Origin: a virus
Taxonomy: Duplodnaviria; Heunggongvirae; Uroviricota; Caudoviricetes
DNA length: 36,135 bases
IMG/VR virus record: IMGVR_UViG_2563366968_000009
Direction: 5' to 3' (one strand)
Shown here: positions 1 to 13,695 of the stretch, piece after piece
Numbering within the stretch: position 1 is the first letter of the stretch
Layout: every line of letters starts with the position of its first letter
Translations under genes and position numbers: made by a program
The notes under the pieces: model-generated
The model's input: the letters and a program-made list of their open reading frames with translations, nothing else
Told to the model about the DNA's origin: nothing
Databases searched by the model: none

Positions 1-1362
1 ATGTTTAAACCGGAACTCCTTTCCCCGGCGGGAACGCTGAAAAATATGCGTTACGCTTTCGCTTATGGCGCAGATGCTGTTTATGCGGGCCAGCCGCGTT
101 ACTCCCTGCGTGTGCGCAACAACGAATTTAACCACGAAAATCTTCAGCTCGGCATCAATGAAGCCCACGCGCTGGGGAAAAAGTTTTATGTCGTGGTCAA
201 CATTGCACCGCACAACGCCAAGCTGAAAACCTTTATCCGTGACCTGAAACCGGTGGTGGAAATGGGGCCGGATGCGCTGATTATGTCTGATCCAGGGCTG
301 ATTATGCTGGTGCGCGAGCACTTCCCTGAAATGCCGATCCATCTCTCAGTACAGGCTAACGCCGTGAACTGGGCGACGGTGAAATTCTGGCAGCAAATGG
401 GTCTGACCCGCGTGATCCTCTCTCGCGAACTGTCACTGGAAGAGATTGAAGAGATCCGCAATCAGGTGCCAGATATGGAGATCGAAATCTTCGTTCACGG
501 CGCGCTGTGCATGGCCTACTCCGGTCGCTGCCTGCTCTCTGGCTATATCAACAAGCGCGACCCGAACCAGGGCACCTGCACCAACGCCTGCCGCTGGGAG
601 TATAACGTCCAGGAAGGGAAAGAAGATGACGTCGGCAACATCGTACACAAGTACGAACCGATTCCGGTGCAAAACGTTGAACCGACGCTGGGGATCGGCG
701 CACCAACCGACAAAGTGTTTATGATCGAAGAAGCCCAGCGTCCGGGCGAGTATATGACCGCGTTTGAAGATGAGCACGGCACTTACATCATGAACTCGAA
801 AGATCTGCGCGCCATCGCCCATGTTGAACGCCTGACCAAAATGGGCGTGCATTCGCTGAAAATCGAAGGCCGTACCAAATCTTTCTACTATTGCGCACGC
901 ACCGCGCAGGTTTACCGTAAAGCTATCGATGACGCAGCTGCGGGAAAACCATTCGATACCAGCCTGCTGGAAACCCTGGAAGGTCTGGCGCATCGTGGCT
1001 ATACCGAAGGTTTCCTGCGTCGTCATACTCACGACGATTATCAGAACTACGAATACGGTTATTCAGTTTCTGACCGCCAGCAGTTTGTTGGTGAGTTTAC
1101 CAGTGAGCGCAAGGGCGACCTCGCGGCGGTAGCGGTGAAAAATAAATTCTCCGTTGGCGACAGCCTTGAGCTGATGACGCCGCAAGGGAACATTAACTTT
1201 ACCCTTGAGCACATGGAAAACGCCAAAGGCGAAGCAATGCCGGTCGCACCGGGCGATGGTTATACTGTGTGGATCCCGGTGCCGCAGGATCTTGAGCTAA
1301 ATTACGCGCTGCTGATGCGTAATTTCTCCGGGGAAACCACGCGTAACCCCCACGGTAAGTGA
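1..1362 (+). CDS. yegQ: U32-family peptidase YegQ (tRNA hydroxylation protein TrhP), complete 453 aa
   Basis: Full-length ORF starting at ATG at position 1; protein recognised from memory as E. coli YegQ (U32 peptidase family). Located immediately left of the sRNA and prophage att site, as in the E. coli yegQ-ogrK locus. Confidence 0.9.
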   Translation: MFKPELLSPAGTLKNMRYAFAYGADAVYAGQPRYSLRVRNNEFNHENLQLGINEAHALGKKFYVVVNIAPHNAKLKTFIRDLKPVVEMGPDALIMSDPGLIMLVREHFPEMPIHLSVQANAVNWATVKFWQQMGLTRVILSRELSLEEIEEIRNQVPDMEIEIFVHGALCMAYSGRCLLSGYINKRDPNQGTCTNACRWEYNVQEGKEDDVGNIVHKYEPIPVQNVEPTLGIGAPTDKVFMIEEAQRPGEYMTAFEDEHGTYIMNSKDLRAIAHVERLTKMGVHSLKIEGRTKSFYYCARTAQVYRKAIDDAAAGKPFDTSLLETLEGLAHRGYTEGFLRRHTHDDYQNYEYGYSVSDRQQFVGEFTSERKGDLAAVAVKNKFSVGDSLELMTPQGNINFTLEHMENAKGEAMPVAPGDGYTVWIPVPQDLELNYALLMRNFSGETTRNPHGK

Positions 1363-8448: not shown

Positions 8449-9498
8449 TTAACTACATGAATCAATGATGTTTTTCACAAGCTTATTTATTTCAGATTCA
8501 TTAGTGCCAAATTCACCCGCTTTAAAATTAATACCTCGCGCTGCAAGATTTCTTTTTATTTTACTTACTTCACTCAGCATAAAGTCATAATTTAACGTTT
8601 TTTCTTTAATGCCCTTTGAATATATTACAGGGAAGGCTTTCATTAATGCCGCATATCCTGTGAGTTTACTTAAATAATATTCCCTTGGTGTATTCCACTC
8701 AACTGGATAGACATTGCTAATAGCATTAAAATAATTCAATATTATTTTTTGAATTACAGCGTCATTCTCTTCGATAAAATAATCGCGGAATATACACTGA
8801 TTATTTGGCGTTAATGGCAGATTCATTTTTAACATTCTTGCATCATCATCAGGTTTTTTTGAAATATGTTGGATAAGATATTTAATGAAAGTGCTTTGTG
8901 ATAATGATGCATTATCTTGGTTTATTTCCTTTTTCCCAAGCATTTTTAGCTTTTTATAAAAAGGGGAATCAGGATTACTGTTTATTCCTCTCGCGATTTC
9001 GTGGCATGTTTTTTGTGGACTCCTGCGTTCTGCAAGCGAAAATAAATCATATACAATTGATGGATTTACACGAGTTTGTTTACTATTAATAATTGAGAAA
9101 ACATAGGCTTTTTCTTCATCAGTAAGATCAAACATTAAAACAACAGGTAGTTCAAAAAGTTTAGCATTAGAGGAATTTTTAATTCCCCATAATCTGTGTT
9201 GACCATCGATAACATCACCTATAACCACTTCAGACTCAAAGTAAAAATAGGTATCATCCATTTTTAAATTGGATGAATCATCGACGGAAATTATGATCGG
9301 CGTTGGAAAAGTCGCATCCGGCTCACTAGTGTACTTTGCGATTTCTGAAACTCTTGATGATGAAATATCCCTTTGCACACCAAATTCGAAATCTCTGCGA
9401 CGATCAACTCTAACTATATCGAGCAAGTCAATGGCTCTTATTGATGTTAAATAGAAAGTACCGATTGGTTGATTAACTTCAATATATTTCAACTTCAT
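8449..9498 (-). CDS. DGQHR-motif protein (DndB-like, predicted ParB/Srx-fold), 349 aa; cargo gene 2
   Basis: Motif VIDGQHRLWG at residues 96-105 plus an N-terminal Q-R dipeptide (VQRD, residues 41-44), as in DndB-type proteins. AAGGAG Shine-Dalgarno 7 nt upstream; start ATG overlaps the stop of the upstream membrane gene (ATGA). Visibly AT-rich compared with flanking tail genes. Confidence 0.7.
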   Translation of the reverse strand: MKLKYIEVNQPIGTFYLTSIRAIDLLDIVRVDRRRDFEFGVQRDISSSRVSEIAKYTSEPDATFPTPIIISVDDSSNLKMDDTYFYFESEVVIGDVIDGQHRLWGIKNSSNAKLFELPVVLMFDLTDEEKAYVFSIINSKQTRVNPSIVYDLFSLAERRSPQKTCHEIARGINSNPDSPFYKKLKMLGKKEINQDNASLSQSTFIKYLIQHISKKPDDDARMLKMNLPLTPNNQCIFRDYFIEENDAVIQKIILNYFNAISNVYPVEWNTPREYYLSKLTGYAALMKAFPVIYSKGIKEKTLNYDFMLSEVSKIKRNLAARGINFKAGEFGTNESEINKLVKNIIDSCS

Positions 9499-10094
9499 AT
9501 CATAACTCCTTTACCATCATCAGTTACTTCATTGGTTGCCATTGTCTGATCTATAACTATTGCATCTTCTTTTTCTATATAACTTTCATCATTTATATCT
9601 GTATGTGCAGTAGCGTTAAGTTTTAATACGCCAAATGTATAGCATACTAAGACTATAGAAATAACATAAATTATAGGTTGAGTTAAACCGAATGTTAAAT
9701 CATTAGAATTTGGTAGGATTAAATCCTTTGATTGCGTAGCAGCGTATATTATTCCTGATAATTGTAATAAAATAATCAATAATATTATTGATATGATTTT
9801 TATTGTTTTAAATTCAAGTTTTGAACTAAAAAAAGTTACAAACATAGGCCCAAGGGCAGAGGCTATTAATGCAATGGAAAATGTGTAAAAACTTCCTGAC
9901 GAACCTTCTATGTAAATAGATTGATCTAGTGGTATTGAATGTGAATAATATCTTATGATTATATTTGCAATAATCCCCATTTGCCCACAAACAACTGTAA
10001 AAACGATCCAAATAAAAAACTCTCTTTTGTTTTTTCTTATCGCATCGAATGGATAGGAAAGGGATTTCTTTAATATTTGCCAGTCTTTACTCAT
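9495..10094 (-). CDS. Predicted 4-TM inner-membrane protein with acidic C-terminal tail (about 199 aa); cargo gene 1
   Basis: Four hydrophobic segments (approx residues 29-50, 72-92, 101-122, 142-160 of the track ORF). The track ORF begins at a GTG (10103); I prefer the ATG at 10094 (MSKDWQ...). AT-rich; first gene of a coupled two-gene operon. Confidence 0.6.
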   Translation of the reverse strand: MSKDWQILKKSLSYPFDAIRKNKREFFIWIVFTVVCGQMGIIANIIIRYYSHSIPLDQSIYIEGSSGSFYTFSIALIASALGPMFVTFFSSKLEFKTIKIISIILLIILLQLSGIIYAATQSKDLILPNSNDLTFGLTQPIIYVISIVLVCYTFGVLKLNATAHTDINDESYIEKEDAIVIDQTMATNEVTDDGKGVMI

Positions 10095-10498
10095 GTTATG
10101 CACTCTTTATTTAAACTTATCAACAATATGTAACTATCAATTAATAACCGTTTACTCTTTTCAAATAATAAAATTATAATCATCAAAAAAATCGACATTA
10201 TAATTAGACAACATTTTTAACACTAAGTGATACCTGACTCATGTCTCCAGACCCTAAAACCGCTTGCATAATTTAGAATGATAATACTACCTTATAGTAG
10301 GCTTGTGAACTTATATAGCATGAGTCAAGTAATTAATAAATCACTTATTTCGTTTTTTTTGCATTTGGTCGCTGTGATTTTTTCATAAACAAACTTACAA
10401 TGATGTCAGCAATGTCTGCTCTTGGCACAGAGCGGACTGTCAGATTAGTTTTTACTCTGTGCCATAGATGTATAAACTCACATCAGAGCTTATACAAT

Positions 10499-11077
10499 TT
10501 ATTGTGGCATTTCAGGCCATTCTATATCCGGAGCATCTTCCGGCTGAATGCGATTCAGTAGCACACGGTATTTTTTCCAGTGTGTCAGGCTTAACTTTTC
10601 TTCCTCAGTTGCCATATCCAAATCGACAGCATCCTGCAGCGTGGCAATAATTTCACCTGCATATGCAATCTGCTCTTTCTTCTGAGACTCAGCCGCTCTG
10701 ACAAGTGCATCACGCTCTGCATTCTCATCATTCACCCACGCATTTCCGTTCCATTTCTGATAATCCCCCTCCGGGGAAATGGCTGTCACGTCTGGAGATA
10801 ATGCGCCAAGTTCAGAAATATAAATGGCTGCTCCCGTTTTCGTTTCGTATACGGTCTTTCCGCGATGGTCTTCCATCAACTCCCATTTCATTTCATCTGC
10901 ATTGAAAACGGCTGCATAACCAGCCGGTATATCAGGCGGCGCAATATCTGTACTGTTTGCAGGCAAACCTGTATACGGAGGAATATATGCATCACTTTCG
11001 CCAATAAATTCATTGGTTCCATCAAGTAAATTGAAAACGCGGATAGTTTGTGCTTCTGCACTCATTCTGAAAGCCAT
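10499..11077 (-). CDS. G: Tail fiber assembly chaperone gpG
   Basis: Position immediately after H with TAATG stop/start overlap, and size, match P2 G (Tfa family). Confidence 0.8.
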
Positions 11078-13695
11078 TATGCAAGCCTCACAATATAGTT
11101 AAATGCGATGTTTTTGACGGTGTTTTCGGTATTACCTGTAGCATTAACGGTAATAGAGTGCCCGTGTGAGCCAATAGCAACCGTGTGTGAATGTGCACCA
11201 ATACCAACCGTATGATTATGTGCGCCAATATCTACCGTGTGGGCATGATTCCCGGCAGCTCCTGATGTGCCATTAAACGATGGGTTGTCAAAGCCTGTTT
11301 TACCGGTTTCACCATTAGTATTGGCATTCCCTCTGTAAATGGTATGTGTATGGTTACCAGTGGTATTAGTGGTTTTTGTTCCGTAGTTAAACGTACTGAC
11401 TGTCTTCGTCCCGTAATCAAATGAACTGGTCGTTTTCGTCCCTAAATCCGTATTTGACGCACTGGCACTGTGAGTATGCGATTTAATCCCGTCCTGTTCC
11501 TGTGACAATACGGCACGCCCACTGGCGGGTTTGCCCTTGATTGTCCAGCCGCGCATATCTGGAATAACACCAGAAGGATAGACAATAGCCAGTTTCGGAT
11601 ATGCAGCCTTATCAAACGTCTGACCCTGCATAATTGCATAGCCTGCAGGTGGTGTATCTGATGGCCACGGCAGCGGAACACCAGGCGGAAACGCTTCAAT
11701 ATCTTTCGTCCCGTCAAAGGTTACGCCGTTAATTGTCCTTGCCGTTTTCAGCTTTGTTGCTGTAGCAGCATTGCCGGACAGTTCGCCTGAAAGACCGGCG
11801 CTGAAGGTTTGTTTCGCCGCCCATGTCTGGGCTTCGTCAATAATTGGCACACGTCTTGTGGTGATCGTGCGACTTCCCGGATTTCCTGAAATACGCACCA
11901 TAAAAAAGCGGTAGTTCGCTTTACTTACAGTGCTGCGCCATACATGCATTGAGCGCCCCGCACCGGAATCATCACTCGGACCAACTGAGATGTTTATCAG
12001 GTTGCCATCAATGACGCCCCAGTCCATACCTTCGGGAATGTTGGTCATGTTATCAAGCCGAACGGTTATCAGACTGCCCGGCACAAAGTCGTAGGTCTGC
12101 CAGTCCAGGCTGGAGAGTTTTGCCACTGCACCGCCGATACCCAGATTCAGGGGAAGTGAATACGAGGTGTAGACTTCCCGCCATTCGCTCCACGAGCTGC
12201 CGGTATAGACGCGCTCAAACGTGCGACCTTTAAGGGTTGCACCTGTTCCGGCAGTTGTATAACGCTGCCATACGTTAACACCATCAAAGCGCCTCAACAC
12301 TTCCAGAATCCCGAGGACTGTCACGCCGTTTCCGTCCAGTATTGGACCGTTGGTCGCTTTACCTGTAACGCTGTAAATACCTGGTGAAGTCACCTCATTC
12401 AAATCCCCGTCGTAATAACGACTCTCTGACTGATGACCGACTCTTAACCACGGTTCCCACTGTGGATTTGATGCATCCCAGCTTGCCGCAAGGCAGCGGA
12501 CATACATATTTCCACGGCGAGTGGTATAACGTTGCGTTCTTCCATAATTCCCGCCTTCGAGGATCTCAAGCATCCCCTGAGCAAAGCCGCCTTCCTCTGG
12601 ATAATTGCGTTCATATGAAGCTATAGCCGAGCTACTGTTACGCCATAAACCAAGATGCTCGGCGGCTCCAAGCGTATTCAGGTCTATAGTCGTACTCAAA
12701 GGGCGGGTAGCAGATTGAGTGTGACGCCATACGCCCCACGGACCATCAGTGCCATTCCACTTATTGGCGAGTTTACGCATGTAAACATTGCCGTCTCTCG
12801 TGGTAAAGCGTTGCGTACCTGCAAAATTGCCGGCAGCAAAAACCTCAAGCACACCGACAGCATTATCTTCCGGGAAATTTTTCTCCAGTGTTGCGTTAGT
12901 TGAGGTAGCTTTAGACCAGATCCCCAGATAAGCCTTAACGGGACCAAATGTATTCAGGTCGGCATCAACCGGCATTTCGCCATTGTTTTTCATAAACGTC
13001 AGACTGGTAACGCCAACATTGTCCAGAAAAGCTGATTTATCCTGGATATCTGCACCATTCTGATTTTTCGCCAGACGTGAATTTGCGTTGTCATTTGCTG
13101 CCTTGACCGCTTTTGGCGTTGCCGCCAATGACTCACTGGTGCTGTTTGTTGCACTGCTTAACTGAGTAAAACCTTTTTCTGTCAGCGTGGCGTCAGGATG
13201 GCGGCGGGACTGCTCATGTTCTGCGATTTTGTCATCGACGTAATCCTGCGTCGCCATCACTGTGCTGGCATCAATACTCAGCTCAACGGACGCCACGTTA
13301 CTGACAATAATAACCATGCGGCAGGTCTGCGCACGCCCGGAGCCTTCAGCGAGTTCAGGCTTATAGCTTTCTGCCATGTTGGCGACCGCAATCAGTGTTC
13401 CGGCATCGTCATACAGACCAAGCTCACGCATCCAGAAGCCGCCCACTTCGGGCGGTACAACCAGTTCAGCCACGATATAGTTTTTATTCTTATTATCCAC
13501 GCTGACTTTATTCAGAGCGTGACGCCAGACCTCATGCACCAGTTTCGTCTGACCGGCATCCGGCACCGGCAATTTGCCATTACCGTCACCCACGGCCATT
13601 GCAGACAGGTTTACTTTTTTCCCGCCGGGGACAGTGGCGGCTGCCAGCTTCGCGGCTCCGGCAGTAGTGATAACGGTTTTAAATTTCGTGCTCAT
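11077..13695 (-). CDS. H: Tail fiber protein gpH (872 aa) with divergent distal half
   Basis: N-terminus ([20 protein letters not shown]...) matches P2 H from memory. The central region has three related ~60-aa repeats; the C-terminus has periodic GxHxHTV repeats. Confidence 0.85.

Follow-up and report, generated by a model that had tools for sequence, protein, structure and literature searches.

In the analysed DNA (a stretch of 36,135 nt, hereafter the window), gene H of a P2-like E. coli prophage (Peduovirus) very probably codes for a trimeric tail fibre that was built by recombination from known modules. A P2-type N-terminal domain would anchor the fibre to the baseplate and would be followed by a short Mu S-like linker and by a shaft of three homologous ~90-aa knob beads and a fourth knob-like domain. 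The distal part would form a collar and needle of the T4 gp37/lambda Stf type, with the chain running down the needle, through a tip at aa ~786–815 and back to the collar, and each chain, through its six HxH motifs, would contribute to the binding of six metal (iron) ions along the trimer axis. The chaperone G, putatively coupled to H in translation, would attach to the C-terminal region of H and initiate the folding of the trimer there. No observation spoke against this architecture. We infer the trimeric state, metal binding, chaperone dependence and receptor of H. All features are listed in Table 1.

Table 1. Features of the fibre gene H and the chaperone gene G in the window; aa numbers refer to H.
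Feature	Position (nt)	Strand	Basis
Tail fibre gene H, 872-aa ORF	11077..13695 (incl. stop codon)	minus	ORF list and translation
N-terminal baseplate-attachment domain, P2-like, aa 1–151	13243..13695	minus	Pfam Phage_tail_fib PF12571, E = 6.6e-58
Phage_fiber_2 repeat and Mu S-like linker, aa 167–233	12997..13197	minus	PF03406, E = 6e-21
Knob module 1 (M1), aa 236–328	12712..12990	minus	Homology to M2; 5–6-strand β-domain in AF2 model
Knob module 2 (M2), aa 329–423	12427..12711	minus	Homology to M1; AF2 model; block match to 6CL5
Knob module 3 (M3), degenerate core, aa 424–511	12163..12426	minus	hhalign to M1 and M2
Fourth β-domain, aa 512–620	11836..12162	minus	Six strands when modelled alone, pTM 0.67
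Linker with conserved motif, crossover zone between knob block and distal cassette, aa 621–666	11698..11835	minus	Identity shift
Collar domain, equivalent of T4 gp37 D10/gp12 collar, aa 667–738	11482..11697	minus	PF07484, E = 5.6e-10
Descending needle strand, HxH at 740 and 782 plus sequence repeats, aa 739–785	11341..11481	minus	2XGF alignment
Distal tip subdomain (hairpin turn), aa 786–815	11251..11340	minus	Aligns to T4 gp37 932–959
Ascending needle strand, HxH at 817, 826, 835 and 844, aa 816–855	11131..11250	minus	9-aa/27-nt spacing
Conserved C-terminal strand, aa 856–872	11080..11130	minus	Predicted return to collar
Chaperone gene G (192 aa), tail fibre assembly, lambda Tfa type	10499..11077	minus	PF02413, E = 2.3e-39

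H matches PHROG tail fibre families (E = 1e-253) and lies between a homologue of tail protein I and a Tfa gene, in the same order as in P2. According to the ORF order of the window, it follows the baseplate genes J and I in the late operon and precedes the chaperone gene G, and this order recurs in an annotated prophage of 99.8% identity as well as in P2. The V-W-J-I-H-G operon position is thus shared with gpH/gpG of P2 (NC_001895), whose G is likewise a Caudo_TAP protein. The initial annotation had described H as P2-like at its N-terminus and ~200 aa longer than P2 H, and both statements hold: aa 1–207 are 85% identical to P2 H, and the protein comprises 872 aa compared to 669 aa. Past aa 207, however, window H yielded no alignment with canonical P2 H, the receptor-binding C-terminal part not being colinear, and P2 H contains neither the knob block nor the HxH needle nor anything else detectably similar. 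Judged from these alignments, window H is a P2-family fibre through its N-terminus only. Its first 151 residues show 96–100% nucleotide identity to the fibre genes of phages P24C9 and P24A7b. The following linker (aa 167–233) matches tail fibre S of phage Mu (PDB 5YVQ/8JU3) with E-values of 1.5e-15 to 2.4e-17. A small patch at aa ~190–235 diverged separately, with a dS of ~1 compared to most alleles and 0.2 compared to allele L009.

For the region downstream of the linker, three related modules of ~60 aa at aa 270–500 (~12200..12890) had been proposed. Their homology was confirmed, but the repeating unit measures ~88–95 aa and the modules extend over aa 236–511 (12163..12990); the core suggested for them, G(T/R)QR(F/Y)TTR.GN.Y.R, applies to M1 and M2 but is degenerate in M3. 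As a whole-protein self-BLAST of H returned the identity match alone, it was replaced by segment-wise Smith–Waterman comparison against shuffled sequences, complemented by hhalign. M1 was related to M2 with z = 34 and to M3 with z = 4.3, and in neither comparison did any of 300 shuffles reach the score. hhalign values were 99.9% for M1–M2 (E = 1e-30), 91% for M1–M3 (E = 1e-6) and 62% for M2–M3 (E = 8e-5), so that the significance of the internal repeats lies far beyond chance. Repeats and His periodicity could also reflect mere composition or coincidence in a Gly/Thr/His-rich fibrous protein, a reading that would agree with the self-BLAST result and with the fourth domain (aa 512–620), for which neither Smith–Waterman nor hhalign detected a relation to M1–M3. 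It is nevertheless refuted by the Smith–Waterman, hhalign and codon-shuffle lag statistics, the last of which gave z = 5–6.6 for a lag of 27 nt. In addition, the same β-domain was modelled for each module, and the HxH columns match iron-binding motifs known from a solved structure, leaving chance a practically negligible probability.

Structural comparison assigns a fold to these homologous modules. An AF2 model of aa 224–635 (pLDDT 78, pTM 0.36) contained 5–6 strands in each module according to DSSP; the inter-domain geometry is unreliable because the models are monomers of a trimeric protein. Foldseek retrieved the R1 pyocin fibre 6CL5 as the best match for the block (E = 3.7e-8, prob 1.00), followed in the PDB by phi11 gp45 and the receptor-binding proteins of phi812 and 80alpha, with a low global TM-score, since several beads were aligned at once. 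These matches largely coincide with the published list of knob-domain relatives, in which the knob domain is described as tandem beads of ~85–95 aa with a 5–6-stranded antiparallel β-sheet (PMC6116203). Close relatives are named ‘pyocin knob domain-containing protein’ at NCBI. No Pfam or NCBIfam model matched aa 236–620, and the NCBIfam search matched neither H nor G; membership of the knob block therefore rests on predicted fold and database names. By these two lines, aa 236–511 are three homologous knob beads of the R-type pyocin kind. The top three Foldseek matches of the fourth domain, 6CL5, 6CL6 and 6EU4, all contain knobs but are weak (E ~0.05, prob 0.90–0.98, TM 0.41–0.46), and this domain is probably a fourth knob-like bead.

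The fibres of R1 and R2 pyocins (6CL5/6CL6) carry the same tandem β-sheet beads of ~85–95 aa with 5–6 antiparallel strands. However, sequence identity is only ~15%, two beads stand against three or four in window H, and their distal end consists of an iron-containing shaft and a lectin-like foot instead of a gp37-type needle. A further counterpart was found in the ‘large distal tail fiber subunit’ (P0056) of the T-even Shigella phage JK23, which contains the same four-domain knob block (60% identity over 99%). Unlike window H, the JK23 fibre combines this block with a T-even gp37 N-terminus and a different C-terminal region, and the linker motif flanking the block is located upstream in JK23 gp37 but downstream in window H. 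In T4 gp37 itself, the knob block was not found (best E = 0.4), which separates T4 gp37 from window H in the presence of a sequence-similar knob block.

The distal part of H (aa 663–872) matches the T4 gp37 needle (PDB 2XGF, E = 4.8e-76) and is 73% identical to lambda Stf. The alignment with both proteins revealed invariant residues in the collar, the stem, the HxH motifs and the C-terminus, and the collar, both stem strands and the HxH and C-terminal segments are 71–95% identical. In detail, the collar, whose boundaries were set from gp37 residues 811–881 (PMC6957217), shares 74% identity with T4 gp37 and 83% with lambda Stf, the descending strand is 79–82% identical to T4 and lambda, and identity to these two proteins is 91–95% for aa 856–872. 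The likeness to long tail fibres whose tips bind metal, noted earlier, is strongly borne out by the 2XGF match. Six HxH motifs occur, at aa 740, 782, 817, 826, 835 and 844 (11158..11478), and in the alignment they fall into the same columns as the iron-binding motifs of 2XGF. The repeats initially annotated are real as motifs, but they cover 107 aa, and even spacing is limited to the last four. The periodicity of ~24 nt that had been reported was rejected in favour of 27 nt (9 aa): against codon shuffles, z was 5.3–6.6 for lag 27 and −1.6 to −2.1 for lag 24, and TRF returned a period of 27. T4 gp37 coordinates seven iron atoms by histidines (PMC6957217). For H, the conserved HxH columns point to a putative octahedral coordination of iron by histidines from the three chains. 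As T4 has seven HxH motifs, lambda Stf eight and H six, the needle of H is shorter and the number of six metal ions per trimer is a prediction.

By homology to 2XGF, the needle would form a hairpin in which the chain runs down, passes a tip insertion and returns, so that the distal tip would be located at aa ~786–815 and not at the C-terminus. The His-rich C-terminal tip of the initial annotation was accordingly abandoned, the C-terminus being predicted to fold back to the collar; its counterpart, gp37 residues 1010–1026, belongs to D10 (PMC6957217). In T4, mapping showed that the tip is inserted into the stem, and its residues 932–959 are the mapped LPS/OmpC contact site (PMC6957217). The corresponding segment of H is 27–35% identical to T4 and lambda, in contrast to 71–95% in the flanks, and is shorter than the tip of lambda. 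Furthermore, it is wholly replaced, as the only such part, in allele L007, where it reads VGFAVSVQSGGADYGVPRSDKGATTTSSSG, with flanks and G that are ~99% identical. We predict from these patterns that the hypervariable segment aa 786–815 contacts the receptor.

The start of gene G overlaps the stop of H (TAATG), and a terminator scan downstream of G yielded no hit. G carries the Caudo_TAP domain, follows the fibre gene directly and consists of a variable N-terminal and a conserved C-terminal half. It shares 64% identity with lambda Tfa across the full length and 98% with G of P24A7b. Identity to P2 G amounts to 30%, with the aligned part confined to the C-terminal half (aa 95–192, 38%). T4 instead employs gp38 (32% to G) plus gp57A as chaperones. 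The earlier view of G as cognate to a swapped fibre is well founded, as G resembles lambda Tfa just as the needle resembles its lambda counterpart, while the P2-like distal domain of P24C9 is accompanied by a P2 G-like chaperone (74%). In window H, P24A7b and P24C9, every distal cassette is paired with a chaperone type of its own; needle and G are co-inherited.

Comparison with two groups of Peduovirus fibres resolved the mosaic. The P24A7b (Escherichia virus P2_4A7b) fibre of 874 aa is colinear over its full length (79% aa identity), shares the Pfam architecture and has its own Tfa; its N-terminus and its needle plus G cassette are 96–100% identical, whereas the four domains of its knob block represent a diverged allele (50–70% nucleotide identity, dS saturated). 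Fibres of the type of P24C9, phages 10W and 11W, and Yersinia vB_YpM_50 share the N-terminus and knob block (91–99% DNA identity, gene nt 1–1952). Their distal cassette, however, belongs to the P2 H type, with Pfam gp37_C and 39% identity to the C-terminus of P2 H; it includes a P2 G-type chaperone of 175 aa and lacks both collar and HxH needle. In sliding-window analysis, aa ~235–630 showed 98–99% DNA identity to P24C9 and 50–70% to P24A7b, while the stretch from aa ~635 to the end of G matched P24A7b at 92–100% identity and bore no relation to P24C9. Across aa 616–661, identity to P24C9 fell from 0.86 to 0.59 and that to P24A7b rose from 0.86 to 0.92. Within the knob block, dS jumps from knob to knob between alleles, and M3 was exchanged singly, with a dS of 1.1–1.3 compared to L007/L008, for which the dS of M2 is 0.03–0.05. 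Hence, knob block and needle plus G cassette assort independently, and single knobs are also exchanged. This agrees with the domain swapping suggested at the outset, as everything past aa ~207 is replaced compared to P2 and the sliding window delimits separate exchange units; the ‘mosaic distal half’ is indeed mosaic, but the mosaic comprises at least four segments.

Instead of serving purely as a spacer, the three or four beads of the shaft may form a lateral, independently exchangeable array that binds saccharides (e.g., O-antigen, capsule or other surface saccharides) alongside the needle tip, which would make the fibre bivalent, with a second receptor-binding region; we consider this conceivable but doubtful. 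In R-type pyocins, the surface of Knob2 is the most variable and was argued to set the killing spectrum, and the K1F endosialidase has a knob-like domain that binds sialic acid (PMC6116203). Moreover, colinear alleles differ most in the knob block (50–70% nucleotide identity compared to 92–100% in the flanks), and single knobs are swapped independently. On the other hand, loops of any β-domain diverge fastest, receptor contacts of T4 and lambda were mapped to the needle tip alone, and dN/dS is 0.0–0.27 in every knob, so that recombination of old alleles explains the divergence. The Nei–Gojobori analysis, in which dS was saturated for the most diverged allele, revealed no positive selection in knobs or tip; dN/dS was below 1 in all segments (0–0.5), which lends no support to diversifying point mutation and leaves the divergence as recombinational. 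If the bivalent arrangement were true, knob-by-knob recombination would tune the host range apart from the tip. A bivalent knob-plus-needle architecture has neither a solved structure nor a receptor assignment in E. coli peduoviruses.

The receptor of H is likely to be other than that of P2. By analogy to T4 and lambda Stf, it is probably an outer-membrane porin and/or LPS, with a tip sequence that differs from theirs, and we infer a host range different from that of P2. A fibre without present function, stranded in a decayed prophage, would be in line with the finding of this sequence on a chromosome as a prophage and not as an isolated virion. This is very unlikely, however, as the ORFs of H and G are intact and free of interruptions, with their stop and start coupled, the late operon around H is complete in the 99.8% identical prophage, all segments are under purifying selection (dN/dS 0–0.5), and the colinear homologue of 874 aa was deposited as an Escherichia phage genome (P24A7b).

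Because all parts of the functional fibre that we favour are well known, i.e., the P2 domain, the pyocin-type knobs and the T4/lambda needle with its chaperone, H is a textbook mosaic of an already known kind and nothing new. The sequence of P2 H/G was reportedly published in 1992, and tail-fibre mosaicism is said to have been known since. The mosaic leaves the understanding of tail-fibre evolution unchanged, and its value lies chiefly in a correct annotation for this prophage lineage. The annotation names the 30 residues that most probably set receptor specificity (aa 786–815), shows which chaperone would have to accompany the tip, and marks the conserved-motif linker and the knob boundaries as natural crossover points, which could be of use for engineering P2-based particles or retargeted pyocins.

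Regarding occurrence, the same pair of H and G was found in 96 of 5,426 complete E. coli genomes (at least 80% coverage, best identity 99.8%). The knob block was present in 314 of these genomes and the tip plus G cassette in 116, with both in 96. The sequence was seen as a chromosomal prophage, of a lineage that human isolates of E. coli, ST131 among them, commonly carry.

Homologues of W, J, and I, which are baseplate genes in P2, precede the tail fibre gene H, whose stop codon overlaps the start of the chaperone gene G (TAATG). With 872 aa, H is about 200 aa longer than canonical P2 H (669 aa), as the initial annotation had stated, and its N-terminal part is P2-like: BLASTP aligned the two proteins at 85% identity over aa 1–207 only, and nothing aligned beyond aa 207, where colinearity with P2 H therefore ends. 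The segments described below are collected in the table.

Features of H, G, and the adjoining region (P24A7b and P24C9, Peduovirus phages)
Feature	Residues of H	Nucleotides	Strand	Remarks
H ORF		11077..13695	minus	872 aa
G		10499..11077	minus	192-aa Caudo_TAP chaperone gene, directly downstream of H
Unit 1	1–187			common to all peduovirus alleles, 96–100%; 77% to P2
Unit 2	~190–235			small Mu-S-like patch of separate history; PDB 5YVQ, E=1.5e-15
Unit 3, knob block	~235–630			98–99% identical to P24C9; only 50–70% to P24A7b
Unit 4	~635 through end of G			92–100% identical to P24A7b; unrelated to P24C9
Modules M1–M3	236–511	12163..12990	minus	~88–95 aa each
Collar	667–738		minus	by alignment to T4 gp37; 74–83% identity to T4/lambda
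Descending strand	739–785		minus	by alignment to T4 gp37; stem strands 71–82% to T4/lambda
Tip	about 786–815		minus	by alignment to T4 gp37; 27–35% to T4/lambda
Ascending strand	816–855		minus	by alignment to T4 gp37; stem strands 71–82% to T4/lambda
C-terminal strand, back to collar	last 17		minus	by alignment to T4 gp37; 91–95% to T4/lambda
Spacer		10104..10498		395 nt, AT-rich, between G and cargo genes
Cargo, two genes		8449..10103	minus	GC 27–35%, between G and tail sheath gene

Whole-protein self-BLAST of H was uninformative on repeats. H was therefore cut into segments, which were compared by Smith-Waterman alignment against 300 shuffles, and by profile–profile comparison of slices from a 30-sequence alignment. 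M1 (aa 241–328) and M2 (aa 329–423) were closely related (score 187, z=34; profile–profile 99.9%, E=1e-30), followed by M1 and M3 (aa 424–511; z=4.3, a score reached by 0/300 shuffles; 91%, E=1e-6) and by M2 and M3 (z=2.1; 62%, E=8e-5). The three modules are thus real, although the unit is 88–95 aa rather than the ~60 aa first proposed, the array reaches beyond aa 270–500, and the suggested core motif fits M1 and M2 only. A fourth segment, M4 (aa 512–620), showed no relation to M1–M3 in profile–profile comparison.

No Pfam or NCBIfam model covers M1–M3, and they matched no solved structure at the sequence level. Close relatives bear the database name "pyocin knob domain-containing protein", which we used as a lead rather than as a test. 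For aa 224–635, AlphaFold2 gave a model (mean pLDDT 78) with four successive β-domains of 5–6 strands each, and Foldseek against the PDB placed the R1 pyocin fibre on top (6CL5, E=3.7e-8, prob 1.0), followed by receptor-binding proteins of the staphylococcal phages phi11, phi812, and 80alpha. These matches largely agree with the published relatives of the knob (defined as a five- or six-stranded antiparallel sheet of about 83 aa), namely phi11 gp45, phage K gp144, and T4 gp34 (PMC6116203). M4 is probably a fourth knob, as judged from a separate model (pTM 0.67) whose top three Foldseek matches (6CL5, 6CL6, and the AS12 tailspike) all contain knobs, with E only about 0.05.

The distal part, aa 663–872, matched the receptor-binding needle of T4 gp37 as solved by crystallography (2XGF, E=4.8e-76), bearing out the proposed likeness to metal-binding HxH tips; identity over this region is 73% to lambda Stf and 68% to T4 gp37. 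The HxH motifs have their first residues at aa 740, 782, 817, 826, 835, and 844. The last four are spaced by 9 aa, i.e., 27 nt, a period recovered by TRF and by lag tests against codon shuffles (lag 27, z=5.3–6.6; lag 24, z<0), so that the earlier value of ~24 nt was slightly off. The T4 chain runs from collar D10 (811–881 plus 1010–1026) down a stem (882–931) to a tip subdomain at the distal pole (932–959) and back (960–1009), and its needle holds seven iron atoms, each bound by histidines from three chains (PMC6957217). As, by alignment, the chain of H comes back to the collar in its last 17 residues, its C-terminus is not the tip, contrary to the initial annotation. The tip is also hypervariable: in the E. 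coli allele L007, collar, stems, and G are about 99% identical to the window and aa 786–815 are wholly replaced, a pattern expected for a receptor-specificity determinant. T4 has seven HxH motifs and lambda Stf eight; H has six, and six metal sites are therefore predicted. A further gp37-type allele, L008 (E. coli JNEC-KY175), bears an additional HxH (AHTHNV) on its descending strand; its tip and ascending strand are longer, and its Tfa, of 205 aa, is extended at the C-terminus. The number of HxH rungs, and with it the length of the needle, thus varies among E. coli prophage alleles.

Exchange units were mapped by sliding-window DNA identity and segment-wise dS, which resolved at least four units in H and G, in line with the proposed domain swapping. 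The crossover between knob block and distal cassette lies within a conserved 22-residue linker, which in gp37 of the T-even phage JK23 flanks a knob block 60% identical to that of the window. As the virulent JK23 carries this block, it must be passed between T-even phages and temperate P2-like ones; T4 gp37 itself lacks it. In the large distal tail fibre subunit of Shigella phage JK23, the four-domain block occupies aa ~105–505, and a 13-residue linker sits upstream of it, compared to downstream in H. Relative to L007 and L008, knob 3 alone was replaced (dS 1.1–1.3 for M3, 0.03–0.05 for M2), and relative to a third allele, L009, M1–M3 diverged and M4 did not. Recombination boundaries within M1–M3 hence fall at single knob-domain boundaries, and one ~90-aa bead can be the exchange unit. 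As dN/dS was 0–0.5 in every segment, the variation is explained by recombination of old alleles rather than by positive selection.

G is 98% identical to its P24A7b counterpart, 64% to lambda Tfa over the full length, and 32% to T4 gp38, whereas P2 G matches only the conserved C-terminal half (38% over 99 aa). Tfa proteins reportedly combine a variable N-terminal domain, which binds the fibre C-terminal region, with a conserved C-terminal domain (North et al. 2019, Nature Microbiology), and the similarity pattern of G fits this layout. In P24C9, the knob block of the window is followed by a distal domain resembling that of P2 H, and the chaperone is of the P2 G kind (74%), so each tip moves with its own chaperone type, as expected from the suggested pairing with a cognate G.

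By analogy to the named homologues, H would form a trimer, G would bind its C-terminal region and nucleate folding, six His6 sites along the needle would bind iron, and aa ~786–815 would contact the receptor. The receptor of lambda Stf is OmpC. T4 gp37 binds LPS and OmpC (PMC6957217), and porin and/or LPS is therefore our best guess for H, though its tip differs in sequence from those of T4 and lambda. A host range other than that of P2 is plausible. That P2, Mu, P1, lambda, and T-even phages exchange fibre segments horizontally is a classic result (Haggård-Ljungquist et al. 1992, as cited in PMC13100340), swaps of short hypervariable segments have been demonstrated experimentally to switch host range in P2-like fibres (PMC5285337), and the exact architecture of H is already present in the deposited P24A7b genome and RefSeq annotations. 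The initial annotation thus interprets correctly a feature that is ordinary and of a type known before. Of modest interest is the knob array as a second receptor-binding site, an idea we consider tentative and rather doubtful.

Among 5426 complete E. coli genomes (coverage of 80% or more), the knob block was found in 314, the tip plus G cassette in 116, and full H plus G in 96 (best identity 99.8%). The best-matching prophage adjoins fieF/pfkA in a human blood isolate, and an ST131 strain carries a knob block 100% identical to the window. The gp37-type needle occurs in 624 phage records, among T-even, lambdoid, P2-like, and Felix-O1-like phages.

In P2, a terminator is annotated downstream of G, whereas a simple scan of the spacer beyond G found no terminator-like hairpin, and promoter-like matches there were at chance level. 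The cargo lies at the position of the P2 Z/fun locus, where P24A7b and P24C9 carry unrelated cargo (three hypothetical genes, and NUDIX plus HAD hydrolases, respectively). It encodes a 349-aa DpdB-like protein with a DGQHR motif (PADLOC, E=1.2e-16) and, upstream and overlapping, a 202-aa hydrophobic protein with no match in PADLOC; the pair may be an uncharacterised candidate anti-phage module, located in a hotspot already known from P2.
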